DNA of 64,000 bases from a virus (taxonomy: Duplodnaviria; Caudoviricetes), in the IMG/VR virus record IMGVR_UViG_3300013426_000001, positions 32,001-96,000 of that record; one strand, given 5' to 3'. The notes below the pieces were generated by a model that did no database searches, was not told the origin of the DNA, and was given only the letters and a program-made list of their open reading frames with translations. Each line of letters begins with the position of its first letter. Within the stretch, counting starts at the first letter, position 1. Shown piece after piece: positions 9,354 through 56,008 of this stretch. Both the position numbers and the translations under genes were made by a program.

Positions 9354-10337
9354 ATGGCGGAGTATTTATCTAAATTTACTGGCGCTCGTGTGGATTCGGC
9401 GGTGGAGAAAATCCCCGCCACCTTACCCACCGAAGACAGTAGTATAATCGTCATCAGCAAAGACGGAACGACGGGCTATACGACGCTTTCGAGTTTAGGC
9501 GCTGGAGACGTTGTTGCGGCTGGGAATAACGCTTTTACGGGGAACAACACGTTCGCTGGAACTTCGACGTTTAACGGTGACGTGACGATGGCGAAAACGC
9601 CGACCATTCCTGGATATGCGAACTTGGCAGGCGAGAATACTTTTACTGGTAGCAATACTTTTAGTGGGGATGTTACGATTTCTAAAATTCCCAATATAAC
9701 GGGTTATGCGGCGTTGGCTGGCGCTAACACTTTTACGGGGTCAAACACGTTCCAGCAAGACGTTACTATAGGAACAACGGCGCAATATGTTTCGATTACT
9801 TCAACAGGTATTTCGAAAAAGGCGAGCGATGCAAGCTCGGTACTTAGTTATGATTTACCTAATAGTGCGGGCATTCTTGCGTTAACTACGGATATTGCTT
9901 CAGCGGTTGCTGGTTTGGCGAGTACGGGTTCTTCTAATAGCTTTTCGGCAAACAATTATTTCGCCTATAATAAAGGAATAGATATCGGTGAAAAATCAGT
10001 CGCGCCGCCGTGGCTTGCGATTAGAAATGATAATACGGTTGTTCAGGATAAAGTCGCATTCTTTTATCACGATGGCAATGCGGAAAACACCCAAAATGTG
10101 GCGTATTTCCCAGCTCAAAGTGGCGTTATAGCACTTACTCCGATGGCGGCACCGACTGAAACAAGCTTCGTTACTTATGGTACAGATTTTAAACCCCAAT
10201 GGGTTAAAGGAAGCGATATTCCCGACGCGAAGGCGGTTACGGCGCTTGCTGATAGACTGGATAAAATCGAGACGCTCTTGGCTCCTGGTTTAGCTGCGGA
10301 GAACGCAAGGGCTATTTATTGGTTGCTTGCTGAATAA
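9354..10337 (+). CDS. Tail-fibre protein with NTFTG repeats
   Basis: Three tandem LAGxNTFTGSNTF-like repeats, LPNSAGILALTTDI; start at ATG 9354 behind GGAGG. Confidence 0.65.
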   Translation: MAEYLSKFTGARVDSAVEKIPATLPTEDSSIIVISKDGTTGYTTLSSLGAGDVVAAGNNAFTGNNTFAGTSTFNGDVTMAKTPTIPGYANLAGENTFTGSNTFSGDVTISKIPNITGYAALAGANTFTGSNTFQQDVTIGTTAQYVSITSTGISKKASDASSVLSYDLPNSAGILALTTDIASAVAGLASTGSSNSFSANNYFAYNKGIDIGEKSVAPPWLAIRNDNTVVQDKVAFFYHDGNAENTQNVAYFPAQSGVIALTPMAAPTETSFVTYGTDFKPQWVKGSDIPDAKAVTALADRLDKIETLLAPGLAAENARAIYWLLAE

Positions 10338-10352
10338 AACCCTCGTTTTATT
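10333..10352. repeat. Junction palindrome AATAAAA-CCCTCG-TTTTATT
   Basis: Perfect copy overlapping the TAA stop of 9354..10337. Confidence 0.75.
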
Positions 10353-10389
10353 ACATGGAGAAATTTTAGGAAATTTTTTAGGTAAAATT

Positions 10390-10420
10390 AGAGACTTCGC
10401 TATGTGCGAGGTCTCTTTTT
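10390..10420 (+). terminator. Rho-independent terminator
   Basis: AGAGACTTCGC-TATGT-GCGAGGTCTCT followed by T-tract. Confidence 0.75.
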
Positions 10421-10470
10421 ATCTATATTTTTGGGAATTTGGGAAAATAAAAAACAAGGAGGCACGGAAT

Positions 10471-10959
10471 ATGGATATAAAACAAACGCTTATGCAGGCG
10501 CTTAAAAAAGATATAAAAATAGACTTAGAGCGGAAATTAGAGAAAGTGCGGATTCCGTGCATGAATTATCTAAAAGAAAACGCTCTAAGGATCTTCAAAG
10601 AGAAAATAACGGAGGTTTACCAGATAAACCACGATAGAATACAAGTAATAGATTTACCTCTATTTTTGAAAACTATAACAGTACAAGACAAAGATAAATG
10701 GAGTTTTGATATTTTTATTGACGAAGATTTATTAAATTTTAAAACGAAAAGCGGCGAACAGATTTATCAATACTCTAATGACGGGATGTTTTATACCAAT
10801 AATGAGAAGGTTCATAATTTAGATGAATATTGGCATTCACCCATAAACGGGAAAAGCGAAAATAATTGGTATAAAATTGAAATTTGGAAAGAACTTAATA
10901 CTTTTTTAAAAAATGATTTTACACAATATGTAAGAGACAGATTAATGGAGGTAAAATAA
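10471..10959 (+). CDS. Hypothetical protein preceding the tape measure
   Basis: ATG 10471 behind AAGGAGG; stop abuts the TMP start. Confidence 0.6.
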   Translation: MDIKQTLMQALKKDIKIDLERKLEKVRIPCMNYLKENALRIFKEKITEVYQINHDRIQVIDLPLFLKTITVQDKDKWSFDIFIDEDLLNFKTKSGEQIYQYSNDGMFYTNNEKVHNLDEYWHSPINGKSENNWYKIEIWKELNTFLKNDFTQYVRDRLMEVK

Positions 10960-13900
10960 ATGAAAAAAACTGATAAAATCGGTGTCGAAATATATTTAAA
11001 ACAATATGAAGATATGTTTAAACAGTATCAAGAACTTTTAAACAAAGAAATGGGTAATCATAAAGATATGCTAACTTCGATTATGAGAGAGCAGCTTGAT
11101 GATCTCAAAGATACTTATAAACTTCCAATGGACAAAATCCGAGAAATAGAAGATCGTATTTTGGCGCCGAAATTAAAAGAACAGGCTGAGAAAGCAGCGC
11201 AACAAGCTAAAAAAGACGCTGAGGATTATTTGAAGAAGAACCAGGAGACTATCAATAAGGCATTAGATGTTAATAAAGATAGTATGAAAACACTCTTAGA
11301 GACAAATAATTTAGTAGTCGAAAGTAGTAAAAAAGCTCTCGAGGACGCAAAAAAAGCGAAAGAAGCCATAGAGAAACAAGATAGGCAAATGAAAAGGGAT
11401 AAGGCGAGGGGTGCTCGAGCGCTCAAAAATCAAAGAGCGAAAGCGGAAAAAGAAGCTCGAATGAAAACTGAGCAAGCCAAATCGATGTATTTTGAAGCCG
11501 CACCATCTGCTGATTATGAGGTAATAGATGTCCCTGGAATTGGGCATAAATACAAACATACAAAGGTTAAAACCGCAAAGTTAAAAAGTGGGAAAGAAGT
11601 AGATCTCAGTAATATAAGGCAATTATCCGTTACTAAGTTGGCATCTTTAATAACTCATAATTTTGAAGATTTTGAAGCCCTAGCAAAAGAAAATGCGCAG
11701 AGAATAGCTGATTTTGAAGCGCAATATGGCAAAACCCCGTTAGACAAAGATCTTCGCAAAAAGCACTCAGAGCTTTTGGCACTGCAAGACGAATATCAGA
11801 GTGCTGATTTGAATTTAAAAAGAGCACAAAAAAGAGGCACTGCTTTTCATAAAGTGGTTGAACTTGTAGAAAAAGGTCAGGTTTCTCTTAACGATTTAAC
11901 AGAAAAGAAAATAGAAGAACTTGGTAAGCAATACGATGAGATAGGTGAAGGGTTTAGTTTTAAATACGGGGAAACCAAGGTGCGCGGAACCACTTCCAAG
12001 GATCTGTTGAAACTTGTAAAGCAGTATGATGAATTTAAGAAGCAGACTGGTCTGAGCGGGCAAACAACCACAGAAACACCACTTGGAATGCTTGTTGATC
12101 TTGGGGATGAGGTTGTAGAAGTCGCGGGTACGTTTGACAGTATTTTCAATGAAATGTCTACTCTTATAGACTTTAAAACTAGTGGACGAGTTGATGTAAA
12201 AAAGATAGGAATACAATTAAACCTACTTAAAAAGATGGCTTTACTCAATCCTAAATTTATGAAACTCAAAGGGATAAAGGGGTTGGACGCTTTAAAAGTT
12301 TTTCATTTGCCATTTAAGGGTGGTGAAGGTGGAGTTTACGATGTCGGTACTGCCGATGATGCAATGATGTGGCAGTGGATAAAATCCGCTTTCGATATTT
12401 TGGCTGGAGAGACGACAGAAAAACCTAATGTCCCAGTTTTAATGCGGGGCAAGTTAACGCTTGGTGATTGGCATGATAAAAAAAAGAAGACTACTGGGAA
12501 ACAGTGGTTGCTTAATAATATATCTTTGAAAAAATTAGCCGAAAATTATGAAAGGGGTACCATGTCTTACGAGGAAATTATGGATAACATAAATTCCTTA
12601 AACGAAGAAGACCGTCGACATTTTATAAATTTGATTTGGAGTACCAAAGAATACGAAGAAAAAAAGAAAACGCAGCGAGTTTACAAAGTCGTAGATGGCA
12701 AGCGCGTCCCTTTATTAGATGAACAGGGTAATATTCGGTATGATGAGTCTGGCAAGCTATTATACGAAATGCAGGATATTGTGTCTTCTATTCCACCTAG
12801 AGAAACTGGAAAATTATATAGACAAGGCGCTTTATGGGACAGATTGCGGGGCGATTTGGATTCTTTCCAAAAAGAAATAGAAAAGGTGGCAACTGACGAA
12901 TACGCGAATATAGCTGATAAGATGACAAAGATTCAAGAACGAATTTCGAAAATCAAAATATCTTATGTTGAAGCGAAGGAATATGTTCCAGACGAACAAG
13001 GTAATTTGCGGGAGGTTACTAAACTCGTACCAGCAAATGAAAAAGAAAAAGCAAAAGAAAATAGGCGCGATAAACTTATAGCACAGCGTGAAGCATTAAG
13101 AGCCCAATTGGCAGAAAAAGCATCTTCTGCATTTTCGGAGCAAGTTTTCAAAACTGAACAAGGATACGGAAGCGCTCAAACAGTAGGTGGAGGTTTTTTG
13201 TCTGAATGGGCCAAAGCTTATCGAATACACGCAGAGCAAGACGATGGATTGGCCGAAAAAATTGCAGACCGTTTTGTTAGCTATATTCTTAACGCTGGCT
13301 TATCTAATTTTCAACTTGATGAACTCAAAGGCGGATTAGCAGGTATAGCAATCAAGGATGAAGCGAATCAGGCGTTTGTTGATGCAATTCAAGACAGGTT
13401 GCTGGGTAAACATTCGATAATTGCGCCCAATTTGGAACGTGTTCAAGAACTCGAAGATCAAATAAAGGCTTTAAATCAAGAACGTGCTTCTTTGGACAAA
13501 GGAGTTCCCAACCCGAGAATTGAAGAGATAGATAAGCTTGTTCAACGATTGATAGCGGAACAAGATCGTCTTAAATATGCTCAGGAAGTGGGTGGAATTT
13601 TTTCTGACGAGCCGATAGGAATTAACGAGATGACGGATGATTACGCTTTAGAAAAAGGTAAAAAATCCGCCGCAATGCGTGGAGAAGCCGCTACCAATAG
13701 AGCTGCTCGAATGATTAGTCGACTTAAGGCTTTTTCAGAATACGATCTATCGGATAAAAGTTTTGATGATGTCATGAATTTTATCAAGGGACTTACAGGT
13801 ATAAGAAATGAATTTAAGGGATTTTTAAATGCTTTGGGTTCCAGCGAAAACTCTGAAATTGATGAATATGGAGTTCCTGAATATATTGAAAAAAGTGAAA

Positions 13901-16900
13901 CCATTTTGAATGCTTGGACCGACTTTGTTCGTAATCTGAGAAATAAAGTTAAAGGGTTGGAGAATCTGGATAATTTAGACGAAGATCAGGTAGAAGAGGC
14001 GGTTAAAGGGTTAGATATCGCAACCTCGACCGAGGAAGATATCGGTGGGCTTGCTAAAAAAACAGGGCATAAATTATCTTGGTTATATCAACTTAAAGAT
14101 ATTTATGACGAGTTTTTATCTCCCGAAATGGAGAAAGTCAACGAGAGTTTGCCTGATAAAGCCAAATTTACATCTGTCGAGCAATACGCTAAATCAAGAC
14201 TCACGCAAGAGCAATACGAGCAGTACGCGTCCTCGATTGATTTCAGGAAGATGATATTGGAGGGCAAAGATCTCGGTACGGTTATAAAACAGTTCTTAGA
14301 CATACCTGAATTTCAGTTAAAAAGTAACCTTGCTTCCACGTTGCAAAAGGCATTAGTAAAAATAATAGAAGCGAATCCTAAACTCTTAGACGATACCATT
14401 TATAATATCTTTATGACTCAAACCGATTTAGGTGGCGGAGCCAAGATGAGGTGGTGGCATGATGCGGGGGCTGCGGAACGGTTAAGAAGAGGGGATGTTG
14501 TTAGAAACTGGGCATACAAACCTAATGAAGTTTTGACAACTAAACCCGAAATGATCGCAGAAGCCGAAGAAAGGGCGGAGGAAAGAGTTCGCGGAGATTT
14601 AGGGAATAGAGAAGCTGTTGAGCTTTTAGAAAAACGAGCTCAATATGCCCGCAAAGAATACAAACAAAGAGAACGGGCTATCGCGAAAGAAGTAAAGGAA
14701 CAAACTGGCTTTGATCTGGAAGATTATGATAAAAGATATGGGTTTGAAGAATACGAAAAAGCATATCTCGATCTTTATAAATTCGCCTTAAAAGTTGGAC
14801 GTGCGGAATCTCACCTCGAAGAGTTTATGAAAGGTGAGCTTGGGTATTCGGAAATAGATGGTGCTGGAACTACGGGTACATTGTTGACCAAAGAGGCGAA
14901 GCAAGAATATGAAGAGCTTCGTCAGGGTTTAGCTATAGCGCAAAGCAGATTGCCTAACCTTGAAGATATGTCTGATGAAGGCAAAAGGTTGTTCATTGAA
15001 AGACAACAGCTCCTTGAAGAATACAGAGTTCCCTATGAAAGAGAAAGGGTTTATCGCAATGTCGCTAGAAAACGTTACGGTTCGGCTACTGATGAGTCCC
15101 TCATATTAAAACAACAAGAAGCTGTTTTAGCGCAAATAAGATCATTACCCGAGCAAACTCTCTCGGAAGTTACTTCTGAAATAGGCGATGCGAAAAGTGT
15201 TGACGTAGATGCGAATTCTATTACGGTCGGAGAACCTGAAAAAGTTGTAAATAATACCGAAACGACGGAGATAAAAGCCGACACCGTGGTAGTCAACAAA
15301 TCTCAATCGGCTACTGCGGAAGCGGTTGAATCCACTGCTGAAACCAAAACACCGAAGAAACGTCGTGGACGCCCGAGAAAGAAAAAAACGGATGATACAA
15401 CTCCCGTTACTCCAACAACCCCGCCTACAGATGGTGGCGGTACAGAACCCCCAACAGAAAGTGAAACTACGAAAAGTGACGCTCAAAAGGCGTACAACGC
15501 TCTTGTCGCGGAAGAGTTCAGAATCAAAAAAGAGATTGCCGCTCTCGACAAAGAACGCTGGAAATCAACTGAAATCGAACGCAAAAAAGATACCGATTAT
15601 GCCGTTCAAAATCTTGACGCAGAAAAGCAGTGGCGTGAAGCCGAATTGGAACGCATAAAAGACCGTAAAGCCGAACTCGAAGGATTAGGCGCGGTCGAAA
15701 GCAAAGCGACAACAGCTTCGAACGAAGAAAAAATGACTGCGTATTTAACGCGATTAGGCGTCGGTACGGACGGCAAAATGTCTTTAACTCCCGAAGAGCA
15801 GGCGGATTACTGGTCTCAATACGAACGTGCGCTTGATAAACAGGCCCGCGCAGAGGAAGAGATTTTCGGCATCCGCAACAAAGCCGCGACGAGCTATGGA
15901 ACGGAGAAAACGCTTCTCTATCAGATAGCCGACGAAAAGGCGAAAGGTTTGGCGACGGATAAAGAAAATGTCGCAATGCTTGAAGCGATTGTTGGTAAGC
16001 TTGACCCAACCCGCTTGGAGAATATTAAGAAGCAGGTTGCACTTAATCAGCAGCTTTATAAATTACAAGCGCTCAAACAAACCCGTGGCGCAACCTCGAT
16101 TTGGGACGTAATGGCGAACGATATTCGTCGTGCAACTATGCGTATCGCGGATTTCGGAATTGCTGCGAAGGTTTTGAATAAGATCCCGCAGGATATACAG
16201 AAGGTAATTCAGTATACGAAAGAGCTGGACGCGGCGATGACGAATATCAGAATCGTCGGTGGGTATAACGAAGAGCAGGCGAGAAATCTAATGAGAAGCT
16301 ACACCGAGTTAGGAAGAACTTTGGGTGCGACCACATCAGAAATTGCGCAAGGAATGAATGATTGGTTGAGACAAGGTTATGAAGCGGAAGATCAATTGGA
16401 GGCATTAGTTTCAGCTTCAACCAAACTTAGTAAACTCGGTATGATATCCGCGTCGGAGGCTACGACGGCACTAACGGCGGCGTTAAAATCGTTTAATTTA
16501 ACGGCAGAAGACGCGATAAAGGTTGTTGATAAGTTGACGAAAGTCGACCAGCTAGCGGCTGTGAGCGCGGGCGGGATTTCGACAGCGCTCCAAAAATCAG
16601 CGACTTCTGCAAAACTCGCAGGTATGTCGATGGACGAGCTTATCGGCTCTGTTTCGGTTATCGGTGAAGTCACCCAGCAATCGATGGATACGGTTGGCAA
16701 TGCGATGAAGTCAATTCTCGCTCGTTACGGCAACGTCAAAGCGGGTGTGTTCACCCAAATGGGGCTTAACGATGACGGGGAAACGACCGACAATATCAAC
16801 GACATCGAAAAGGTTTTGTCGAAGCTCGGTATAAAAGTCCGTTCTTCCGCGAAGGAAATGCGCAGCATAACCGACGTTCTCGACGACGTAAACTCGAAAT

Positions 16901-19900
16901 GGTCGACGTTTGACACGGTAACGAAAAACGCTATCGCAACTGCGTTTGGCGGTACGAGAATGAGAGAAAACTTCCTCGTACTTATGGAGAACTGGAATCG
17001 AGTAAAAGAACTTACCGAAGAATCGGCAAATGCCGCAGGAACAGCTGATGAAAAATACTCGGCGTATTTGGATTCTATCGAGGCTTCGACGAAAAAACTC
17101 CAAAACGCTTGGGAGGACTTTGCACAGTCGATTAAAGGGAGCGGAATTATTAAAGGATTGACGGATGCGTCGACGTGGATTGTTAACTTCGTTAATAAAT
17201 ATGGTCCTTATTTGTTGACCTTCCTTACAACTCTTCAATCTAAGAAGATAATGAATTTCTTGGGTAACAGTGTAACGCAAGGTATTGGTTATGCGAAGGG
17301 GTTTTTTGGCGGCATTGGCACAAAAGGGAAGTTTCATTCGGTTCAGTTTGGCGAAAACGGCATAGAAACCGATGAATTTAGAAATGTCGTAGTTGGTCCA
17401 AGTGGTAAAAAAAGTTTAATTGCGAGATTACTTGACAAAATATTCCAAAGACAAAAAGATACAAGCAATGAGCAGGTCGCCGCAACTAATAAGACTACAA
17501 ACGCGGTTAACGAAACGAAAAATGCCGTAAAAGAAACGCAGGGTAAAACCGTATTGTATGGAGCAGACGGCAAACCGATATCAACGGCTAACTCAACAGC
17601 TGGTCCGAATGTCACGGGGTACCGTGAACGCAATCGGTTTTTTAGCTTTGGCGATCCGAAAGTTATACAACTGACTAATGCCGACGGGACTACTCAAAAT
17701 ATAATGAGGGGGAAAGGGCATAACTGGTATTATACTGACGCAAAAGGTAAAATTACGGAAAATAAGGTTACAGATCAAAAAATTTTATCTCAAGTTGAGC
17801 AAACCAGACAGGCGTCAATCGCTCAAAATATGGGTGCTCGTGCTTCTCAAGCCGCAATTGGAGAACTATCTGCATATATAACCGAGTTGAGTACTCAGCG
17901 TGAAACTGGTGATAAAAGCACGTTCCTTAATAGAATTTTCAGCGAGTTGGCTGGGAATTATACAGACCAAACGGTTGAAGAAACCCACCCCGAAAAAACT
18001 CGAAGATTAACTTGGTCTACTCAATTAGCGGCAATAGGTGGATTTATAGGAGGTTCTACTGGTGCTTCTCTTGGTCAACAATTAGGCGTTGCTATCGCAA
18101 ACGGGATATCTACTAGTGAACGTCTTGGCGAATTGCAAATGAAACAACGCGTTGAGGATGCTAAAGAAAGCCTTAAATTTTTGGAACAAATTGCTTCTTC
18201 AACGAGTCAAATTGAAGGTGTTGTAGAAAGCGGCACATTAGATTCAAAAGGTTATGAACAACTTCAGAATTATATCGATGATCTCACAAAACAATTTGCC
18301 GAATATGACGGTAAAAACTTCAAGGAAATGAGCGATGTATTAGCTGATGCTCTTGGATTAGCCGAAGGTACAACTTACGCCGAATCGTTAAGTAAAATGC
18401 AAGAGAAGCTATTGAGTGGTTCGGTTGAAGAACGTAAAGAAACCGTTAGGGCTCTGAAGCTCGCAACGGCAAAAGCAGAACTCGAAACAACTAGGAAATC
18501 TCAAGAAAAAGATCGCCATGACATTCTTAGTACCGATGTCGTTAAACTGGAAATGTCTACGCTAGACAAAGCTCATTTATATGGCTCTTTAATAGGCGGC
18601 GGTATTCTTGCAGGCGGCGGTGTGGGCGCTGCTGCGGGCAGCGTGGCAGGCGGCGGTGTGGGCGCGATTATTGGCGCTGCTGCGGGTTCCATAACTGGTG
18701 GTATTCTTGGCGGGGTAACCGCTTCGCGTATTCAAGATCTTGTGGAGTCCCAACTCACCAACTATCGCTTTTCAGGTTCCTTAGAGGAAAGACTTGAAAA
18801 AGCTAAAAGTAAGCGAGAAGAAATAAAGCAGTCGGCAGAAACCGTTGACAATAACAGAGCTAAAGAATATCTTCAACAAGGAGTTAATAAGCTCGACGAG
18901 TATATTAACAAAGTTCAGAAAAATATTGCAAAACTTGCATCTATGGATCGAGAGGTGATGGAAAAACAGATAGAAGTGGGATATCTTGCTTCTGATTTGT
19001 CTTCCTTAACCACTGACCAATTATCAGGTTTAACTATTGAAGGTGCTATAGGAAAAGTCGCAGAAGCCATGCGAGATCAAGGTTATGCGGTTTATGACGC
19101 AGCTGGCGCGATCAAAGACGAATATCTCCCGATGATTAAGTCGGCGATTTTGTCTAATTCTGAAATGGCAGTTTTAACAAAAGGCGATACTCAAACCATA
19201 GGCGAATTGGCGAACGCTTATTCGAATTTAGCGGAAAGATTGCAATTCGTCGGGCTGGCTGCACAAGGGATAGATTACGAGAAGTTGAGATATCTTCTTG
19301 ACCATTACGGTGATGACGAAAATGCGACGTTGTTTAACAATGTTGCGGCGGCGTTGAACGTAAGCGTGGATAAACTCAAAGAGCTTGTTTACGCGGCTGA
19401 CCCCGAAAGGATAGAGCAGTTTGCTTCGGCGTGGAACTTAACGGTCGAGCAAGCACGGGCGATGGCGAAAGTCTTTCCTGATTTAACCACGTCGATTGGT
19501 CTTATGTCTGGTGCAGACGTTCGTTCGTATTATTCGGGATTTAGCACGTTCTTTACTGACATTGCAGATAATGGCGAAATTACGGCAGAAAACTTCGAAA
19601 AGATTTTGTCGAATTATCCGCAACTGCTTAAATACTTACGTCAAGGCAACGATGTTTTGGCTGGCGTGCTGGTTGACAAAACCGTTAACGAGCAGAAAGA
19701 AGCGTATATTAACTCGCTTCTGAATGCCGAAATGACGAGCAAAGACTTTGCTGAAGACTTTAAGAAAACACTTAAAGAGGGCGGAGGGCTGGTCGCAGGT
19801 GGACTCACCTATGACGTAGACCAATTACTTGGCGATCAAAGTACGCTTGACGCGATCCTCGAAAAGGCACGTCAAATGGGTGGTGACGTAGGGCAGGCGA

Positions 19901-22324: not shown

Positions 22325-22342
22325 TAAAAGACCACTTTTATT
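22323..22342. repeat. Junction palindrome AATAAAA-GACCAC-TTTTATT
   Basis: Perfect copy overlapping the stop of 21416..22324. Confidence 0.75.
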
Positions 22343-35058: not shown

Positions 35059-35070
35059 GGGAGGTAAATT

Positions 35071-43170: not shown

Positions 43171-43183
43171 AGGTTAGATAGGT

Positions 43184-43702: not shown

Positions 43703-43717
43703 AATTAGAATTTTATT
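43698..43717. repeat. Junction palindrome AATAAAA-TTAGAA-TTTTATT
   Basis: Perfect copy; stop in left arm, GAGGTG follows. Confidence 0.75.
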
Positions 43718-44220: not shown

Positions 44221-44481
44221 ATGGACTGGAAAGAAGAATTTATTAAATTATTAGAAGCGGGAACTTTTGAAACCGATTCAGAAATCGACGATTACGCCGA
44301 CGAACATAATTTACCCGTCTCGGATGTTTGGCAGTGTGTAGCAGAACACGAAGAAAGTTATCTGATCGAGCAATCAATCGGGACGTCCTGTGAAGGTTGT
44401 AAATATGTTACCGTAATACGAGGCTGGGCGCCTTGTCACGATTGTTATCGAAATAAGGCTGATTTTTATAAAAAGGCATAA
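44221..44481 (+). CDS. Small protein with C-terminal CxxC...CxxC
   Basis: ATG 44221 behind GGAGG; CEGC...CHDC. Confidence 0.55.
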   Translation: MDWKEEFIKLLEAGTFETDSEIDDYADEHNLPVSDVWQCVAEHEESYLIEQSIGTSCEGCKYVTVIRGWAPCHDCYRNKADFYKKA

Positions 44482-44499
44482 TAAAATGAACATTTCATT
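44480..44499. repeat. Junction palindrome AATAAAA-TGAACA-TTTCATT
   Basis: 1 mismatch; at a stop codon, GGAGG follows. Confidence 0.7.
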
Positions 44500-45538: not shown

Positions 45539-45880
45539 ATGAATAAGCAAAAAGTTATTGAACTAAACAAAGAATTCGTTAAATTAGTCGCAGAAAACCC
45601 CAATTTGCCGATAAAGGTTTTTGTAAGCGGTGATTGTATGGAAGACGAGGAATGGGTGGTAGGCGAAATTTACGATTGCAAAGTCACCGAGATAGCGGAA
45701 TACGAAGACAGGTGTTACGAAAGAGACGACTTCGATTGGTTGAAAGAGATAATTTCGAACGGGGTTTGCGACGATCCTGAATACGCAAATCTCACCGACG
45801 AAGAGTTTGATAAAGCGATAGAAGAAAAGGTGGAATGGCTCGGTTGGGAAAGAGTGATTTTGTTAAAGGTCGACGTATAA
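45539..45880 (+). CDS. Hypothetical acidic protein
   Basis: LVAENPNLPI motif; AGGAG RBS. Confidence 0.55.
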   Translation: MNKQKVIELNKEFVKLVAENPNLPIKVFVSGDCMEDEEWVVGEIYDCKVTEIAEYEDRCYERDDFDWLKEIISNGVCDDPEYANLTDEEFDKAIEEKVEWLGWERVILLKVDV

Positions 45881-45898
45881 TAAATTTCTTGTTTTATT
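45879..45898. repeat. Junction palindrome AATAAAT-TTCTTG-TTTTATT
   Basis: 1 mismatch; at a stop codon, before P6. Confidence 0.7.
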
Positions 45899-45910
45899 GC
45901 GTCAAAATAG

Positions 45911-45939
45911 TTGACAAATGAATTTCAATATGTTATAAT
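45911..45939 (+). promoter_or_regulatory. sigmaA promoter P6
   Basis: TTGACA-N17-TATAAT, TGn. Confidence 0.85.
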
Positions 45940-45982
45940 CTAATTACAAAATAAATAAGGCGAGAGCCAAAGGAGCAAATTT

Positions 45983-46585
45983 ATGATGGAAAATATGTTT
46001 AATGGCATGTTTGGCAAGGTTGCAAACGGCATGTGTCGTTTGTCTATGAACGGAGGAATTGCAGTCAAAACCTCGAATGGGTATAAAACGTACAATGTTG
46101 AAAAGAAAAGATTGACCAATTGCGATAACTTCGTATTCAACATTGGTGAAGAATTCTTCTTCGTTATCCCCACAAATAAAGCGGCGGTCGGAGATATTAT
46201 TCTCGTGGCAGGCAAACCGAAATGTGTTATCAAAGCTGATGGTGAAACTATTAAAGTTATCAATTACGAAGATTCGACCGTGGAAGATATCCTCCCCGAA
46301 AGACACGTGTTTATGGGAGAAACGTACTTCTATGGGAAAATTGTTTCGATGTTTGGACAGAATTTTATGAAGGGCAAGAAAGGAATGAATAAATTCATGT
46401 CTTATATGATGATGTCCGAGATGATGAAGGGAATGAATGGAAATTCTTCCTCGATGAATAGTATGCTTCCCTTTATGATGATGGGAGGGAACTTGGGCAA
46501 TATGTTCGGTGATATGTTTGACGGTGCGATGGATTTCGGTAACCTGATCGGTGATAACGAAGAAAACGAAGAAGAGGAGAAATAA
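45983..46585 (+). CDS. Protein with Met/Gly/Asn-rich C-terminus
   Basis: AAGGAG RBS; MSYMMMSEMMKGMNG...MLPFMMMGG. Confidence 0.6.
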   Translation: MMENMFNGMFGKVANGMCRLSMNGGIAVKTSNGYKTYNVEKKRLTNCDNFVFNIGEEFFFVIPTNKAAVGDIILVAGKPKCVIKADGETIKVINYEDSTVEDILPERHVFMGETYFYGKIVSMFGQNFMKGKKGMNKFMSYMMMSEMMKGMNGNSSSMNSMLPFMMMGGNLGNMFGDMFDGAMDFGNLIGDNEENEEEEK

Positions 46586-46587
46586 TT

Positions 46588-47475
46588 ATGGGTGGCGGTA
46601 GTTGGACTACGAGTTCGTATACGTCTTATACGAAAACAAAAGGAATTAAAACTTCATGCTTAGCTGACGGAACCGTTACTCTTGACGCTTCTTACGATGC
46701 TCAAGATCTTTATACAGCGAGAAAACTTGATGAAGCACTTGATCCGAGGGGTGTTGTCAGAGAATGCGTAGATAGCGAGGAACACCCGAATACTATTCCT
46801 GTAATTCTTGCTCTTGACGTTACTGGAAGTATGGGGAGCGCCCTCGAAGAAGTTTCAAAAAAACTTAACGCTATTATGACTGAAACATACAAGAAAGTAA
46901 AGGATGTTGAATTTCTTGTGATGGGTATTGGAGACCTTGCGTATGATAACGCGCCCATTCAGGCTTCTCAGTTTGAATCTGATATCAGAATAGTAGAACA
47001 ACTTGATAAAGTTTATTTTGAACGTGGCGGCGGCGGCAATAAATACGAGTCTTATACGGCTGCTTGGTATTTCGCCGTTAACCAAACGAAACTGGATGCT
47101 TGGAAACGCGGCAAGAAGGGTATTTTAATTACTCTCGGAGATGAACCTCTTAACCCGTATTTGCCTAAAGAAGCTCTCAAAAGAGTGACTGGCAACGAAA
47201 CGTTACAAGGGGACGTTGAAACAAAAGAATTGTATGACGAAGTAATCAAAAAATACGACGTTTATCATTTTGCGATTGATGACAACCACACTTGTTATAG
47301 ATATTATAAAAATGACATCAAAGAAACTTGGGGAAAGTATCTTGACGATAATCACCTCAAAGTCGTTACTTTGAACGAACTTGCGGCGCAAATTGTAAAC
47401 GCTATTACAGAATCTTCCGATTCCGCTATTGGCGGAACAGGAGTTTGCACTTCTACTGATGGGATTTCTTGGTAA
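46588..47475 (+). CDS. von Willebrand factor A (vWA) domain protein
   Basis: MIDAS LALDVTGSMG; GGGGNKYESY; ITLGDE. Confidence 0.85.
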   Translation: MGGGSWTTSSYTSYTKTKGIKTSCLADGTVTLDASYDAQDLYTARKLDEALDPRGVVRECVDSEEHPNTIPVILALDVTGSMGSALEEVSKKLNAIMTETYKKVKDVEFLVMGIGDLAYDNAPIQASQFESDIRIVEQLDKVYFERGGGGNKYESYTAAWYFAVNQTKLDAWKRGKKGILITLGDEPLNPYLPKEALKRVTGNETLQGDVETKELYDEVIKKYDVYHFAIDDNHTCYRYYKNDIKETWGKYLDDNHLKVVTLNELAAQIVNAITESSDSAIGGTGVCTSTDGISW

Positions 47476-47480
47476 AATTT

Positions 47481-48665
47481 ATGAACGTTAAAATTGTAAT
47501 AGGATCTAATTATGGAGACGAAGGGAAAGGGTTAACTTCTCGTTACTTTGCCCAAAAAGCCGAAGGAAGTTGCTTAACCGTTTTACATAATGGGGGAGCA
47601 CAAAGAGGGCATACCGTTGATTATTCGGAAGATAAGAGATTTGTATACCATCATCTCGCTTGTGGAACTGCTGATGGGAGTGATACTTATTTTGAGCAAA
47701 ACTTCATAATTAATCCTATTCTTTTTAACAGAGAGGTTGAAGAGCTTGAAAAAATAAACATTCGCAATTACAGCGTATTTATTTCGCCTCGTTGCAGAGT
47801 GACAACCCCATACGATATGATACTCAATCAAATGGTTGAACGGACACGGGGTGGTCAAAAACACGGTTCTTGCGGAGTTGGTATCTTTGAAACTATAAAG
47901 AGATATGAAAGTTCTGAATATAATAAAACCTTTTCCGAGATGAAGAATATGACCGATTTGGAATTATTTAGATATATCGAAGAAATTTCTAGGGCATATT
48001 TATTCAGTAAAATCGAAGAATACAAAATTCCGAGAAATATTTCTGATGATTATTTGCCGTCAATTACTTCTCGTAAATTTTTGACCGATTATATTATAGA
48101 TTTTCGCTTGATGGCATCTGAAATAACGGAGATAGAACCGTGGGATTTGTACGGGAATTATGATACTCTTATATTTGAAGGGGCGCAGGGGCTCGCTTTG
48201 GATATGGACAACAAAGAAAATTTCCCTTATTTGACGCCAAGCAAAACAGGTTGTTACAACCCGCGAAATTCTCTTGAAGAATATGGGAAAATTCCTTTTA
48301 ATATTGAGTTATGTTACATTACAAGAACCTATCTTACTCGACACGGAGCGGGTCCTTTTCCCTCGGAATGTAAAAAAGAAGAAATTAACGAGCGGATCGA
48401 GGACAAAACGAACGTTCCTAATCCATATCAAGATAGTATAAGATATGGGAAGTTCGATATAACGGCGTTTTTAAATAGAATTAAGTCAGACGAAATTACT
48501 TTCCCCTATCATCACATCTCTACGTGTTTTATTACACATAATAATTATGTGGATGTTGAGGGTTCTGAGGTCGAAGAGCAGCTCGCGCCGAACTTTCATT
48601 TTTTATATTTTTCAGGTGATAAGTTCGGTGAAAAAATAAAAACGAAGAGAGGAGAGAGAAAATGA
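47481..48665 (+). CDS. Adenylosuccinate synthetase-like (divergent PurA family) ligase
   Basis: GSNYGDEGKG, GGAQRGHTV, FEGAQGLALD, PYLTPS, TYLTRHGAGPFPSE. Confidence 0.85.
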   Translation: MNVKIVIGSNYGDEGKGLTSRYFAQKAEGSCLTVLHNGGAQRGHTVDYSEDKRFVYHHLACGTADGSDTYFEQNFIINPILFNREVEELEKINIRNYSVFISPRCRVTTPYDMILNQMVERTRGGQKHGSCGVGIFETIKRYESSEYNKTFSEMKNMTDLELFRYIEEISRAYLFSKIEEYKIPRNISDDYLPSITSRKFLTDYIIDFRLMASEITEIEPWDLYGNYDTLIFEGAQGLALDMDNKENFPYLTPSKTGCYNPRNSLEEYGKIPFNIELCYITRTYLTRHGAGPFPSECKKEEINERIEDKTNVPNPYQDSIRYGKFDITAFLNRIKSDEITFPYHHISTCFITHNNYVDVEGSEVEEQLAPNFHFLYFSGDKFGEKIKTKRGERK

Positions 48666-49099
48666 AAGCATATAGGCACGTTTATCTCGATTTTCCTAAT
48701 TTCACACAGGAAAGCTACTACGAAGTTACAAGTAAAGTAACTTTTCAAAACGGCGTAGAGGACGAGATTAAAACAACAATTGTTTGCGACGATCCCTATG
48801 ACGCGATGAGAATGGTTCGAGAATTTCTTTTATCAAAAAAGGATTGGCTTGTAACGGAAGTCCGTGGACAGAGTTGCGAAGGAGGCGCGGTATTGGTCGC
48901 AAAGCCAGAAGTTCCAGAAAAGAAATGGGTAATTATTGGTGATGGATATTATCTTAAATTCAAACATTATTCAATGATTTACACTACTGTTAATGGATTT
49001 AATGTTCATTATGGGATGTTCGATAAAAAAGAAAAAGCAGACGAACGTTGTGCGGAGTTAAATAAAGAGTGGGAAGAATATTTTGGAGATAAAAAATGA
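48662..49099 (+). CDS. Hypothetical protein
   Basis: ATGA overlap. Confidence 0.5.
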   Translation: MKAYRHVYLDFPNFTQESYYEVTSKVTFQNGVEDEIKTTIVCDDPYDAMRMVREFLLSKKDWLVTEVRGQSCEGGAVLVAKPEVPEKKWVIIGDGYYLKFKHYSMIYTTVNGFNVHYGMFDKKEKADERCAELNKEWEEYFGDKK

Positions 49100-49473
49100 A
49101 AACACTTTATTTCAAAAAGACACCCGACAGTGCGGGAAACGAATGGGTTGATTCGCAAGATATTTTTCAGTACGTAGACGAGCTCGATACATTCTTCAAT
49201 AAGTGGTATCAATTCATAGTAAAGAAATGCGAACAACTGAATTATTACAATAATCACACTTCAACCGCATACGGCAATCCTGATTATTCGTGGTTAATAG
49301 GTTTTTGCTCGGGTTGGTTGTCGGCAAAGAGTTGTTACGAAGATATCGAAGATGGTGTTTGCTGTATTAAAGACCAGCGAGATAGAACGATTATGAAATT
49401 TGACGTTCCAAAAATTTCTGAAATAGAACGAGAAAACCGAAAGAAAATCGACGAACTTTGGGAGAATATATAA
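49096..49473 (+). CDS. Hypothetical protein
   Basis: ATGA overlap, GGAG RBS. Confidence 0.5.
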   Translation: MKTLYFKKTPDSAGNEWVDSQDIFQYVDELDTFFNKWYQFIVKKCEQLNYYNNHTSTAYGNPDYSWLIGFCSGWLSAKSCYEDIEDGVCCIKDQRDRTIMKFDVPKISEIERENRKKIDELWENI

Positions 49474-49479
49474 TCGGTT

Positions 49480-49499
49480 AATAGAATAGTTATTTTATG
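49480..49499. repeat. Junction palindrome AATAGAA-TAGTTA-TTTTATG
   Basis: 2 mismatches; intergenic, AGGTGG follows. Confidence 0.55.
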
Positions 49500-52422: not shown

Positions 52423-52818
52423 ATGAAAAAACCGAGTAAATTCAAAAGATGGTTTTTAGGTCTTTTTGGCGGTGTGCCGAAGAGTGATTACAACATTGTT
52501 GTTGAGCAAAGAGACAATTTTATCGGCGACTTGAAAATCAACGATTCGCAGATTAAAGAGTTACAACAAGAAAACGAGCTTCTCAAAAAACAAATCGCTC
52601 ACGACCCGATGACGCCCGTTGCAATCACGACGTGGAATGTTAAACTCAAAGAAATCAAAAAGACGGCGACGATCGGTCCGCTGCCGTTAGATCAAACTGA
52701 ATTTTGTTTGCGTGACGCGGTTTTGATGGAAATCGCGCCGTTTATCAGAATCGAGCAAAGCCCGAGAAGTCAGACAGCAACTGCGACATTGTTACTCGCT
52801 GAGGTCGAAGATGTATAA
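52423..52818 (+). CDS. Hypothetical protein
   Basis: GGAGG RBS. Confidence 0.5.
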   Translation: MKKPSKFKRWFLGLFGGVPKSDYNIVVEQRDNFIGDLKINDSQIKELQQENELLKKQIAHDPMTPVAITTWNVKLKEIKKTATIGPLPLDQTEFCLRDAVLMEIAPFIRIEQSPRSQTATATLLLAEVEDV

Positions 52819-53470
52819 ATTCAAAAAACCGTTATCGGAAATCGATTATATAATTAGTTTTGATCTTGCTCTCTATAAAACGGGCATTTCATTATACAAT
52901 ATTAAGCAAAAATCAATCGTTCGAACCGACAAAATCGAAGTTTCACACAACGATGAAACGCCCGTAGCGACGCTTTATACCAAGCTTAAAGAATACCTGA
53001 CCTCGGCGGTCGAGAAATACGGCAATCTGTTGATGATTATCAAGGAAGCGATGCCCGCGCAAGCAGGTCGATTTACGACCATCGCGACACTCCAAACGCT
53101 CGCAAAGGCGCACGCGGCGCTCGATATCGCGGTTGCGAAAGTGGATGGGGTTGATTTTTATGACGAAGTGGGCGTTCACGCGGTCTCGGTAAAAGCGCTT
53201 TTCAAAACCGAAGAGAACCCGAAGCCGACAAAGACCGACATTAAAAAAGCAGTCTGCGCCTATTACGGGCTGAAAGTAGGCGATTTGACAGATGACGAAA
53301 GCGATTCGGTTGCGGTAATTTATACACTTATCAAGAAGAAGTGGAACGCGGATTTAAAAGACGAGATAAAGCGCGTTAAAAAAGAAATGAAAGGCTTAAA
53401 GCAAGAACGAGCAATCGAGGCACATCAAAAACGTATCGAGGAATTGCAGGGAATGCTTCTTGTCGAATAA
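52811..53470 (+). CDS. RuvC-like Holliday junction resolvase
   Basis: ISFDLALYKTG; IIKE; K..IK..V...DDESDSVAV. Confidence 0.75.
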   Translation: MYKFKKPLSEIDYIISFDLALYKTGISLYNIKQKSIVRTDKIEVSHNDETPVATLYTKLKEYLTSAVEKYGNLLMIIKEAMPAQAGRFTTIATLQTLAKAHAALDIAVAKVDGVDFYDEVGVHAVSVKALFKTEENPKPTKTDIKKAVCAYYGLKVGDLTDDESDSVAVIYTLIKKKWNADLKDEIKRVKKEMKGLKQERAIEAHQKRIEELQGMLLVE

Positions 53471-53485
53471 AAAATATATTTTATT
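53466..53485. repeat. Junction palindrome AATAAAA-AATATA-TTTTATT
   Basis: Perfect copy at the RuvC stop, before P8. Confidence 0.75.
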
Positions 53486-53528
53486 ACATCAAAAAATAAA
53501 ATAATTTTGCAAAACCCGTTTGTTTTAG

Positions 53529-53557
53529 TTGACAACGGGATTTTGTTGTGCTATAAT
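53529..53557 (+). promoter_or_regulatory. sigmaA promoter P8
   Basis: TTGACA-N17-TATAAT, TGn. Confidence 0.85.
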
Positions 53558-53587
53558 GTAGACACTGAAACAAAGGTGGTATGAATT

Positions 53588-55282
53588 ATGAACAAACAAG
53601 AATATGAAATCGTTAAAAACTTCTCTTACGAAGGGTATTGTGATTATCTCTCTAAAAAATACGAGGGTCTCGACAAGACGGGTTTGTTCAAACATCATAC
53701 TTTTGAAAACGTAAAAGCAAATTTGTCTAATCCCGACATTGCAAAAGATGCGACTGAAGAAGAAAGAAACACTATTACTTATTGTTCGTTTGACGAGCAC
53801 TTGTTTTTACACATTCTTATCGGAGAACAGACCGACGCTCGCAAAGCTCTTGGTTTGGGCGGAGCGGTTACTTATATAATCCCGCAGTTAAACAAATATT
53901 TCGATTGCGGCGAAATGGTTTATTCGTCTAATTATTACAGCAATCTCGACAAAGACGTTTTCGATATGCTTGTTAAAAGATGTGACGAGGCGATTACAAA
54001 AACCAACATCGCTCTCGATCACAATAAATCAATTTACTTGCAGGCTGAAAAATATCTCGAAGAAAACGGCAAAGCGTTAGTTGTAATTGGCACAGGTCTT
54101 GGTAAAACCACCACTGCTCTTGAATATTTATGGGAACATAAATGCCGTGCGCTCGTCATTGGACCGAATAACATTATAAAGAGCGGCTGGGAAGAATATA
54201 TCGATTGGTGCGATACCACAACTTATCAGGCATTTGCGAACAACTATCCCACCATCGACTATTCTCAATATGGTTTGGTTATTCTTGATGAGGCACACCA
54301 TGCGGGTTATGATGAAGACACGGGTAAAGGTGCGGCGGTTTGGAGCAAAGGTATTAAGTATATAATCGAGAATGGTGTAAAGGTTCTTGGTTTAACAGCA
54401 ACACCCGAAAGAAGTGATAAGATAGACATCGGTAGTACTATTTTTAGAGGTTGTGTTTGCGAAGGCTTCGCAGTCGAAGACGGCATTGAAAAGGGTATAA
54501 TTCACCCGTTCTCTTATATAACAGCTTATTATGACACGAATGGCATCGCAGAAGAATATTCTGATTGTGAAAACAAAGAACTTGTCGGGCAACTTGATCT
54601 CGCAATAAATAACACGCCGACCGTTAAAGACATATTCAGAAAACATATGCCGAATAATAAAAGAAAAGGCATTGTGTTTATTCAGGAAATTGCAGACGAA
54701 CAGGACGTTATAGATATAATGAAAGACGTTTACCCGAATGTTGAAATGAGAATTATTCATTCCAAAATGACCGACGAAGAAGTAAAGGCAAATCGTAAAT
54801 GGTTTGAAGAAACCGATGAGGGTTATTTACTTGCGGTTAATATGATTTCGGAAGGTGCTCATTACAGAGGTGTAAATACCCTAATTATGTTTAGAAGAAC
54901 GAATTCATATCTCGTTTTCACACAACAAATTGGACGCATTATAACGCTTGTTAAAAACGAGAACCCGAACGCAATTGTTTTCGACTTTGTAAATAATATT
55001 GAAAATATTGAATATAACAACAGAAAACAAGATAAAAAACGTATTCGCAACATTACAAATATTATAAGACAACTCGAAAAGACTTCTGCATTCAAATCCA
55101 AACAAATCATTGTTGCCGACGAAACAAGAAACATTGTAAAGTGCATACGCAAAATTAAAGAATTCGAAGATAATTCTTGGTTGGAATGGGAGGATGATAT
55201 TATTAGGAAATATTATCCAACAGAGGGAGCAGAAGGTTGTATGAAGAGAATTAATCAAAAAAGAAAGGAATTAGGTATTTAA
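53588..55282 (+). CDS. SF2 (DEAH/ResIII-like) helicase with N-terminal HNH-like domain
   Basis: GTGLGKT, LDEAHH, GLTATP, MISEG, QQIGR; N-terminal KHH...YC..DEHLFLH. Confidence 0.8.
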   Translation: MNKQEYEIVKNFSYEGYCDYLSKKYEGLDKTGLFKHHTFENVKANLSNPDIAKDATEEERNTITYCSFDEHLFLHILIGEQTDARKALGLGGAVTYIIPQLNKYFDCGEMVYSSNYYSNLDKDVFDMLVKRCDEAITKTNIALDHNKSIYLQAEKYLEENGKALVVIGTGLGKTTTALEYLWEHKCRALVIGPNNIIKSGWEEYIDWCDTTTYQAFANNYPTIDYSQYGLVILDEAHHAGYDEDTGKGAAVWSKGIKYIIENGVKVLGLTATPERSDKIDIGSTIFRGCVCEGFAVEDGIEKGIIHPFSYITAYYDTNGIAEEYSDCENKELVGQLDLAINNTPTVKDIFRKHMPNNKRKGIVFIQEIADEQDVIDIMKDVYPNVEMRIIHSKMTDEEVKANRKWFEETDEGYLLAVNMISEGAHYRGVNTLIMFRRTNSYLVFTQQIGRIITLVKNENPNAIVFDFVNNIENIEYNNRKQDKKRIRNITNIIRQLEKTSAFKSKQIIVADETRNIVKCIRKIKEFEDNSWLEWEDDIIRKYYPTEGAEGCMKRINQKRKELGI

Positions 55283-55285
55283 CCC

Positions 55286-55993
55286 ATGGAAAGAAATCAA
55301 AATGCAATTATGAAACGTGCACATATTCTTGGAGTTAAATTTGATGAATATTTTTGGTCGGAAGAAGAAATAGAACTCTTAAAAAAATATTATCCAATTG
55401 AAGGCACCGAATGTTATAAAAGATTTAAAAATCTTTCTAAAACTCAAATTAAAAGTGCGGCAATTAGATTAAAAATATATCGCAATCCTATGTGGTCTAT
55501 TGAAGAAAATGAAATTATGAAACAATATTATCCGATAGAAGGCGGAAATTGTTATAAAAGATTAAATAATAAAACAAAAAAGCAAACATTACAACACGCT
55601 ACAATTCTTCATTTATCTTGCCACACAGTTAATACATCGGCTGACAGATGGACCGAAGAAGATGATAATATTATAAAGCAATATTATCCGATAGAAGGGA
55701 GCGAATGTTATAAAAGAATTGCAGGTACTACTAAAGCCACCGTTAGAGGTAGAGCTTCTTTTTTAGGTATTAAAGATATGACATCTAAAGTGATGGCGCG
55801 TAAGATTTTATGCGTAGAAACAGGAGAAATATTTAATAGTATTACAGATGCAGCAAAAATATATGGTTGTATGACAAAGATTGGGGCTGTTTGTAAAGGC
55901 AAAAAAGAGACTGCTGGTAAGCTTGCTGATGGAACAAAATTACGTTGGAAATATGTTGAAGAAACAGCAGAAGAAACATCAACCGCTGAATAA
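55286..55993 (+). CDS. Myb/SANT-like repeat protein with C-terminal NUMOD1 DNA-binding domain
   Basis: Three W(S/T)xEE..I.KxYYPIEG..CYKR repeats; ILCVETGEIFNSITDAA...IGAVCKGK..TAG...WKY. Confidence 0.7.
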   Translation: MERNQNAIMKRAHILGVKFDEYFWSEEEIELLKKYYPIEGTECYKRFKNLSKTQIKSAAIRLKIYRNPMWSIEENEIMKQYYPIEGGNCYKRLNNKTKKQTLQHATILHLSCHTVNTSADRWTEEDDNIIKQYYPIEGSECYKRIAGTTKATVRGRASFLGIKDMTSKVMARKILCVETGEIFNSITDAAKIYGCMTKIGAVCKGKKETAGKLADGTKLRWKYVEETAEETSTAE

Positions 55994-56008
55994 AAGAGAC
56001 ATTTCATC
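55989..56008. repeat. Junction palindrome AATAAAA-GAGACA-TTTCATC
   Basis: 2 mismatches; at a stop codon, before P9. Confidence 0.65.

Follow-up and report, generated by a model that had tools for sequence, protein, structure and literature searches.

The stretch of DNA analyzed here, referred to as the window, comprises 64,000 nucleotides (genome bases 32001-96000) of IMGVR_UViG_3300013426_000001, a complete IMG/VR genome of a virus of the Caudoviricetes (G000; 138,523 bp, direct terminal repeats, 40% G+C). Its gene junctions carry a 20-bp palindrome, AATAAAA-N6-TTTTATT, which a first-pass annotation had proposed as a candidate gene-cassette or recombination site, with an operator as the alternative. 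Nearly all window genes lie on the + strand. They include a DnaE-type polymerase, a PD-(D/E)XK nuclease, TnpB, and a tape-measure protein (TMP; window 10960-21348, 3462 aa) that is among the longest for a siphovirus and in which PHROG tape-measure matches span only residues about 1530-2510. By polymerase identity, the nearest cultured relatives are Clostridium phage c-st, phiCD211, Geobacillus virus E3, and Psychrobacillus phage Perkons. A megablast search of the window against the phage collection gave no matches; closer uncultured relatives were obtained via protein-based searches, and four of them (G001, G002, G003, and G004) were compared as whole genomes. Gene calls are crude for unannotated genomes, and site coordinates are given in window numbering unless marked as genome.

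A spaced palindrome at gene junctions

All 13 previously noted copies of the palindrome are present, each at a gene junction. They are listed below with the flanking open reading frames (ORFs), Shine-Dalgarno (SD) sequences, and promoters.

10333-10352: AATAAAA-ccctcg-TTTTATT, 0 mismatches; TAA of ORF 9354-10337 in the left arm; stands before a chaperone-like gene and the TMP block
22323-22342: AATAAAA-gaccac-TTTTATT, 0 mismatches; stop of ORF 21416-22324 overlaps the left arm
33629-33648: AATAAAA-gctgta-TTTTATC; intergenic, 20 nt upstream of the -35 box of the perfect promoter 33668-33696
34593-34612: AATAAAA-gaggaa-TTTTAAT; TAA of ORF 34211-34597 in the left arm, followed by promoter 34649
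35039-35058: GATAAAA-cggctg-TTTTATT; TGA of ORF 34702-35040 overlaps the left arm, SD directly after
35791-35810: AATGAAA-tagtag-ATTTATT, 2 mismatches; intergenic, SD 5 nt after
43148-43167: AACAGAA-gacgtg-TTTTATT, 2 mismatches; 25 nt past the TnpB gene, SD directly after
43698-43717: AATAAAA-ttagaa-TTTTATT, 0 mismatches; TAA of ORF 43184-43702 in the left arm, SD after
44480-44499: AATAAAA-tgaaca-TTTCATT; stop of ORF 44221-44481 overlaps the left arm, SD after
45879-45898: AATAAAT-ttcttg-TTTTATT; stop of ORF 45539-45880 overlaps the left arm; the -35 box of the perfect promoter 45911-45939 begins 13 nt on
49480-49499: AATAGAA-tagtta-TTTTATG, 2 mismatches; 7 nt past ORF 49096-49473, SD after
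53466-53485: AATAAAA-aatata-TTTTATT, 0 mismatches; TAA of ORF 52811-53470 in the left arm, promoter 53529 after
55989-56008: AATAAAA-gagaca-TTTCATC, 2 mismatches; TAA of ORF 55286-55993 in the left arm, promoter 56073 after

At up to two mismatches, the window holds 17 matches to the palindrome, compared to 3.63 +/- 2.0 expected from 100 dinucleotide-preserving shuffles (maximum 9). The four further matches (34213, 36884, 51541, and 52874) lie within coding sequence in about the number expected by chance, so the list of 13 is essentially the complete real set. Across the whole genome, a 6-bp spacer yields 14 matches at up to one mismatch, and any other spacer from 0 to 14 bp yields 0 to 2. The initial description of conserved arms around a spacer that is always 6 bp and everywhere different in sequence is thus borne out, with enrichment for N6 alone, and the motif, far in excess of the shuffled expectation, is restricted to junctions. 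Its fuller form is T-N2-AATRAAA-N6-TTTYATT-N2-A.

The arrangement of sites with respect to genes is equally regular. The stop codon of the upstream + strand ORF lies in or touches the left arm at nine copies (10333, 22323, 34593, 35039, 43698, 44480, 45879, 53466, and 55989), a recount that lowers by one the figure of ten first reported. Six copies are followed within 0-5 nt by an SD sequence (35039, 35791, 43148, 43698, 44480, and 49480) and five others, 13-65 nt on, by a perfect TTGACA-17-TGnTATAAT promoter (33668, 34649, 45911, 53529, and 56073), accounting for the 11 copies originally said to be closely followed by a ribosome-binding site or a promoter. Seen from the promoters, 5 of the 11 perfect ones in window 30-64 kb have a palindrome just upstream. 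Among seven genomes, 101 of 110 sites (up to one mismatch) are intergenic, while 81-87% of the DNA is coding by the crude gene call, and positions -1 and -4 relative to the stop codon are found repeatedly on either gene strand.

To what kind of element these sequences belong can be read from an alignment of 98 non-identical sites from nine sequences. Information is limited to the two arms, which are 7 bp long and extend weakly to 10 bp, through a faint symmetric preference for T at -3 and A at +22; A is depleted immediately past the A-run, as is T immediately ahead of the T-run. The combinations found at paired positions 3/16 are A/T (72), A/C (28), G/T (23), and G/C (8, where independence predicts 8.5); the half-sites vary independently, compensatory changes are absent, and complementarity at flank and spacer positions is no higher than in shuffled controls. 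Hairpin free energies lie between -1.3 and +0.2 kcal/mol, and the 60-nt contexts, with z-scores averaging -0.54, show no unusual degree of structure. Since the half-sites vary independently and the hairpin energy is close to 0 kcal/mol, the palindrome is very probably read as duplex DNA by a dimeric protein instead of acting as an RNA hairpin or terminator. It also has the geometry of a recombination core site, namely two inverted arms around a center of exactly 6 bp, with no other spacer of 0-14 bp enriched. A terminator scan found none at the palindrome sites, and canonical terminators are not enriched in the region. An intrinsic (Rho-independent) terminator was rejected on the grounds of the A/U-only stem, its folding energy, and the absent covariation, consistent with the earlier opinion that an A/T-only 7-bp stem is too weak for that role.

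Homology breakpoints at the sites

The relation of the sites to gene exchange was examined in an independent, annotated, and far less diverged family by comparing the 80-100 kb region of SPBc2 with Goe13, SPbetaL8, phi3T, and SPbetaL4. All nine site junctions in this SPbeta family are homology breakpoints, compared to 11 of 30 siteless junctions (Fisher p=0.0012). Among 61 orthologous site pairs, 41 have one flank only in common (such breakpoint pairs are non-independent events), and in many of these the shared flank is 100/100 identical and the opposite flank has no similarity. By pair counts, the crossover lies at the left boundary in about 27 and at the right boundary in 14; at least five of the six spacer bases are kept in 30 of the 41 recombinant pairs and fewer in the other 11. 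One site, with spacer agactg, occurs in three upstream and four downstream contexts. In SPbeta, yoqG is followed by a ttgaag site and yoqH-yoqI; in phi3T and SPbetaL4, yoqG is followed directly by the agactg site.

The most detailed case is an insertion in SPbetaL4 (record 15378-17202), where a cassette carrying the anti-defense gene Gad1 and three small ORFs lies between the yoqX and yoqY homologs. The resident site GATAAAA-acgata-TTTTAAC is split there into GATAAAA-cagaga-TTTTAAA, the Gad1 cassette, and AATAAAA-acgata-TTTTAAC. Recombination of a one-site circle at the left arm/spacer boundary would be expected to yield this layout. The insertion brings together different spacers, which would need single-strand exchange, as in IMEX elements or integrons. 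The case suggests that anti-defense genes of SPbeta-like phages may travel as site-bounded cassettes. As a whole, the crossover patterns fit tyrosine-recombinase strand exchange at the edges of the center, and they also fit recombination via 7-20 bp of shared sequence.

In the clade of the window, nearly every site has just one flank conserved in any given relative, and orthologous sites often retain the spacer though the upstream or downstream gene differs. The downstream side is the shared one at 10333, whose G004 ortholog (63833) has an identical spacer and the same downstream DNA next to unrelated upstream DNA, at 55989, where the same is true of G002 site 94522 (spacer gagaca), and at 35791, where G002 site 83421 has the same spacer and downstream gene and a different upstream gene. 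The upstream flank is retained and the downstream flank replaced at 33629 in G004; only the upstream flank is conserved at 43698 in G001 and G004; and at 34593 the upstream flank is conserved in G002, with the downstream flank displaced ~1 kb further. Three relatives conserve the upstream flank of 45879, where downstream conservation consists of the promoter only, and three have an upstream flank 84-86% identical to that of 53466, downstream of which lies a helicase/NUMOD1 cassette found in this genome only. G004 and G002 have sites at the junction corresponding to 22323, with different spacers. At 49480, G001 retains the downstream gene with its own site, and G004 retains the upstream gene without a site, the genes overlapping.

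Site 35039 forms a junction hub: in four genomes (spacers cggctg, cggcga, cggcga, and cgacga), two upstream alleles are joined to three downstream genes, each arm staying with the gene on its own side (left, upstream; right, downstream). Alignment of the relatives places the end points of gained, lost, or replaced genes within the 20-bp site, at arm/spacer boundaries. The units that the first-pass annotation had described between adjacent sites are largely upheld, with 34612-35039, 35058-35791, 43167-43698, 53485-55989, and the TMP block being site-bounded and replaced whole. The exception is 45898-49480, in which the unique segment runs from past the promoter (~45943) to about 48649, an end that carries no site. 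Palindrome sites also abut tRNA 5' ends in the tRNA region of the relatives (G001 45293, G002 103843, and G004 127069); the same upstream flank and spacer are joined there to different tRNAs in different genomes, so that sites also punctuate tRNA arrays.

Occurrence among phages and a candidate recombinase

At up to one mismatch, the motif and its reversed-pattern control were counted in uncultured relatives (motif/control: G001, 8/0; G002, 12/1; G004, 17/0; G003, 0/2; G005, 0/0) and in further phages (Perkons, 23/2; E3, 18/4; SPbeta (SPBc2), 15/2; Tsamsa, 11/0; Lactococcus phage AM1, 1/0; Staphylococcus phage SA2, 2/0; MT835481, 3/0). In an unbiased count, ATAAAA-N6-TTTTAT is the commonest exact palindrome in G000, G001, G004, SPbeta, Tsamsa, E3, and SA2, and in Perkons it leads alongside an ATGAAA variant. 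Its exact copies far outnumber those with other spacers (SPbeta, 13 vs 0.2; Tsamsa, 20 vs 0.1; E3, 17 vs 0.3; Perkons, 9 vs 0.1). The core TAAAA-N6-TTTTA occurs 26 times in phiCD211 and 31 times in c-st, compared to 7 in the control; SPbeta has about 34 copies of it. The arms in phiCD211 are the variant ATTAAAA/TTTTAAT, present as 16 copies of ATTAAAA-N6-TTTTAAT in 43 kb (e.g., 1771, 9135, 16782, and 33565) against ~2 at other spacers, and the stop-site-SD layout is unchanged.

The element follows phage DNA. The 5.3-Mb genome of Nanhaiella sioensis, which has an SPbeta-like prophage, contains 65 exact sites, at least 39 of them in a 139-kb stretch around the YomM homolog, and the chromosome outside the prophage is at control level. 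Only 0-1 copies were counted in each of the B. subtilis phages BSP21, PM1, and 049ML001. This clustering in the prophage, together with the absence from other B. subtilis phages, ties the element to a particular set of phages and not to host or composition, and a host-factor regulon was rejected on the same evidence. The papers searched on Perkons, Tsamsa, MrpR, and the SPbeta relatives yielded no mention of the motif.

As the first-pass annotation had stated, the window encodes no recombinase; the search for a tyrosine recombinase elsewhere in the genome located one at genome 29352-30389, 1.6 kb ahead of the first window base. It is the only tyrosine recombinase of the genome, which has no serine recombinase. 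The protein scores 59 bits on PF00589 (cut-off 27.1), has an N-terminal SAM-like domain, and finds its best PDB match in XerH, with which its catalytic residues (GMR170, GK210, H279SLR282, W, and Y314) align, as befits a tyrosine-recombinase domain. It belongs to a family that includes SPbeta YomM, Tsamsa gp227, E3 gp28, Perkons ORF195, AM1 gp117, and the SA2 integrase, and a family profile recovered full-length members in phiCD211 (8.8e-42) and c-st (3.6e-37). The same profile found no member in BSP21, PM1, or 049ML001, nor in G003, which has only a generic integrase (39 bits). Of all G000 proteins, the recombinase alone has phmmer matches in Perkons, E3, SPbeta, and Tsamsa while lacking one in G003, the relative without the motif.

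The YomM family accompanies the motif over phage lineages, and where the motif is absent (G003, BSP21, PM1, and 049ML001), so is the family. The motif itself is confined to phage DNA and occurs only where the family occurs. The YomM-family gene sits among structural genes; in Tsamsa and AM1 its immediate downstream neighbor is the tape-measure gene. The G000 protein is 84-89% identical to its G002 and G004 counterparts, and the adjoining head and tail genes have no detectable homolog there. One carrier is the cheese-whey isolate AM1, a Lactococcus phage whose 949-type group we take to be virulent. SPbeta and Perkons integrate by serine integrases (PMC10516654; PMC13245101). A literature search on YomM returned nothing relevant.

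Promoters and TnpB near the sites

Between 30 and 64 kb, the window has 11 promoters that match the extended -10 consensus at 12 of 12 positions (TTGACA-17/18-TGnTATAAT), at 33668, 34649, 41869, 44170, 45911, 52119, 53529, 56073, 57659, 59724, and 62673. Several of them have a common upstream element of ~20 bp (AAAACYCGTTCAAAYAG), and in blastn comparisons they match each other and the promoters of relatives, forming a second repeated intergenic cassette that recalls the promoter early stem loops (PeSLs) of T4. Just past the palindrome at 33629 and its promoter, the first gene of an early operon (window 33870-34214) encodes a small protein matching PF20274, the cyclic-phosphate processing receiver domain (cREC_REC; 5e-14).

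The TnpB gene (OrfB_IS605; PF01385 and PF07282; window 41909-43123 and L002 8721-9960) directly follows the -10 box of a perfect promoter. G001 has an 87%-identical TnpB gene at another location, just upstream of the DNA polymerase. The copies have only the ORF and the AACAGAA arm in common; in G001, the gene and this arm are linked to a different spacer and right arm, and G004 has AACAGAA-cacatt-TTTTATT ahead of the same downstream gene as site 43148, without TnpB. Because homology between the copies begins at the start codon, there is no insertion-sequence left end at that point, and a TnpB/IS605 end was rejected as the source of site 43148.

Mechanism and alternative explanations

The YomM-family, Xer-like recombinase would be the most likely dimeric binder of the palindrome. 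Each junction, with common arms and a 6-bp center of its own, could then act like a heterospecific lox or dif core site. Unlike spacers within one genome would keep the intervening DNA from being readily deleted, whereas the same junction in co-infecting relatives, or the site of a free cassette, might be joined by strand exchange at the arm/spacer boundary, so that whole cassettes would be replaced, gained, or lost without internal homology. That YomM-family recombinases act on the palindromes in this manner, as core sites for cassette exchange, has about an even chance of being correct. We infer from the genome comparisons that YomM would bind and cleave at the sites, making exchange enzymatic instead of a matter of short homology. 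More tentatively, and at a probability short of even, the large Bacillota siphoviruses (SPbeta, Tsamsa, E3, Perkons, phiCD211/c-st, and the present clade) may possess a built-in YomM/lox-like cassette-exchange system, Gad1 swaps included, as a phage counterpart of integrons and pdif.

Several observations weigh against cassette exchange by YomM. The co-occurrence of motif and recombinase is structured by phylogeny, nearly all positives being large Bacillota siphoviruses of common ancestry, and AM1 and MT835481 have the recombinase with a weak motif (TAAAA-N6-TTTTA in AM1, 9 vs 2.8 at other spacers). The motif is unchanged across recombinases only 24-38% identical. The second catalytic arginine is a lysine in the subfamily of SPbeta YomM, E3, and Perkons, a change that usually cripples catalysis in other tyrosine recombinases. 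In the window's clade, breakpoints fall at 13 of 14 site junctions and at 67 of 87 others (p=0.29); the clade is so mosaic that the excess is not significant at the junction level, and the pair-level values (p = 0.003-0.01) are pseudo-replicated. G002 has ~2 kb of extra DNA after its equivalent of site 22323 without a second site, and the tight packing of sites against stop codons and SD sequences or promoters would suit a role in gene expression too. Finally, laboratory hybrids of phi3T and SPbeta arose mostly at ordinary homologous regions (bioRxiv 10.1101/2020.05.06.055103).

The main rival to YomM-mediated exchange is that the palindrome is an operator or roadblock for a dimeric phage regulator, similar to a stoperator, with the mosaic boundary arising passively by short homology; the regulator might even be a non-catalytic YomM, in the manner of MrpR. 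This is possible, if rather unlikely. Independent variation of the half-sites is what a protein dimer on duplex DNA would produce, and the sites stand between stop codon and SD sequence or promoter and are concentrated in the early and replication gene regions; canonical terminators, as noted, are not enriched in this part of the genome. One 5' leader site (genome 100834 and its orthologs) lies 17 nt past a -10 box and has perfect arms with wholly different spacers. There are also precedents, in the stoperators of L5 and in the SPBRE-MrpR system of SPbeta; the latter is described in PMC10516654. On the other side, the position relative to promoters is variable (13-65 nt upstream of the -35 box, or past the -10 box), a shared stretch of 7-20 bp is short for recombination, yet breakpoints occupy 9 of 9 site junctions and 11 of 30 others, and the Gad1 insertion falls exactly at an arm/spacer boundary. 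A search for a lysogeny or helix-turn-helix (HTH) regulator with a matching distribution over the genomes found none, the minus-strand cluster encoding nucleotide-metabolism genes, PhoH, ClpP, and methylases, and two multi-HTH DUF7487 paralogs (genome 4004-5470 and 15883-17817) were rejected as binders for being too narrowly conserved, one being 40% identical in E3. Nor is the palindrome the MrpR site itself, since SPBRE, a 15-bp motif, differs in sequence (about ACAAATACAAAWAATATGTATATA). The regions that bear SPBRE (upstream of yorE, aimR, yonT, yonP, yonX, yopV, and yopM) have the element ...AAATACAAAWAATATGTATATA in common, and among these seven only that of yorE has a palindrome nearby. 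A signal for a YonO-type RNA polymerase was likewise rejected, as YonO uses one promoter, upstream of yonK (PMC5467207), and the 788-aa protein suspected to be such a polymerase is a RecD2-like helicase.

The other explanations fare worse. An RNA hairpin between cistrons (AAUAAAA-loop-UUUUAUU), serving as a weak terminator, processing site, or stabilizer, would account for the location of sites in intergenic DNA that is transcribed, at the ends of genes, ahead of SD sequences, and, in relatives, directly 5' of tRNAs. It is nonetheless very improbable in view of the folding energies and z-score given above, of A/C mismatches as common as G/T pairs with G/C at the level of independence, of arms whose very sequence is conserved though a stem needs no fixed sequence, and of an element that is identical on either gene strand, e.g., in E3. 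A host-factor site, or a by-product of AT-rich intergenic composition in which a TAA stop meets a U-rich leader, is more improbable still: the motif is AT-only, includes TAA, and occurs in phages of several Bacillota hosts, but spacer 6 alone is enriched, reversed-pattern controls give only 0-4 matches, the Nanhaiella sites cluster in the prophage while BSP21, PM1, and 049ML001 have next to none, and sites occur also without an upstream gene or without an SD sequence. Taken jointly, the RNA, host-factor, and chance readings have a small probability, and there is a comparably slim chance that none of the readings named here is right.

Comparison with known systems and implications

A close parallel to the proposed YomM core sites is offered by the dif/pdif sites of Acinetobacter plasmids, which are likewise dispersed, consist of inverted arms around a 6-bp center, bound gene modules that differ between related replicons, and go with Xer-like recombinases, of which one is encoded in the present genome. 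The palindrome differs in being located in a phage, with a phage-encoded YomM-family candidate enzyme instead of host XerC/D, in its symmetric arms without C/D alternation, in overlapping stop codons and abutting SD sequences or promoters, and in that recombination is inferred from genome comparisons. Its arms, ending in AAAA and beginning in TTTT next to the center, resemble those of the single-recombinase Xer sites difH (AGTTATGAAAA ...) and difSL (TTTCCGAAAA ...), which have the same AAAA/TTTT arm ends beside the center (PMC5357621).

The analogy with integrons and pdif arrays that the first-pass annotation had drawn holds for the cassette boundaries at sites; its integron part breaks down at one point, the sites being read as duplex DNA and not as folded hairpins. 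As with integron attI/attC, promoter-poor ORFs are each followed by a site, the boundary point is fixed, the sites vary around a common core, and the Gad1 case has the form expected of a one-site circle insertion. Integron attC, however, is recognized as a folded single strand, whereas the half-sites of the palindrome vary independently without a hairpin signal, which places it outside the integrons; there is, moreover, no intI-attI-Pc platform, as sites are genome-wide and the recombinase gene lies among structural genes. In heterospecific Cre/lox sites, used for recombinase-mediated cassette exchange (RMCE), arms are also common; the spacers here are unique within a genome, and orthologous junctions often keep the spacer despite flank exchange. 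The arms of lox are 13 bp and its spacer 8 bp, P1 carries just one such site, and RMCE is an engineering method of which we know of no natural multi-site counterpart. About a quarter of the recombinant pairs differ in spacer, so that spacer matching does not appear to be strict.

Like the T4 PeSLs, the palindrome is a repeated intergenic element beside early sigma-70-type promoters that borders shuffled small genes. PeSLs are reportedly repeats of about 50-70 bp that work via homologous recombination, as Arbiol et al. are said to have proposed in 2010; the conserved part of the palindrome, in contrast, is 14 bp, would need a specific factor, and is found also away from promoters. L5 stoperators and SPBRE-MrpR provide the precedent of dozens of protein-site copies in short intergenic spaces or overlapping stop and start codons. 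L5 stoperators are asymmetric and oriented with transcription, unlike the symmetric palindrome, and the regulator search in G000 and its relatives identified no repressor as its binder. MrpR, the SPBRE binder of SPbeta, has a tyrosine-recombinase fold (PMC10516654).

If the palindromes are indeed YomM core sites, several features of these phages would find an explanation. A function would be provided for the conserved orphan recombinase YomM and for the unexplained multiple integrases of Perkons, E3, and Tsamsa, and the clean turnover of accessory and anti-defense cassettes in SPbeta-like phages would be accounted for. Phage mosaicism is usually ascribed to illegitimate or short-homology recombination followed by selection; dedicated, site-directed exchange would be a new mechanism for modular phage evolution, and its natural set of orthogonal recombination sites could serve phage engineering. 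Even with a regulator as the binder, a cis-element conserved from Bacillus to Clostridioides phages would be a useful marker of regulatory or mosaic boundaries.

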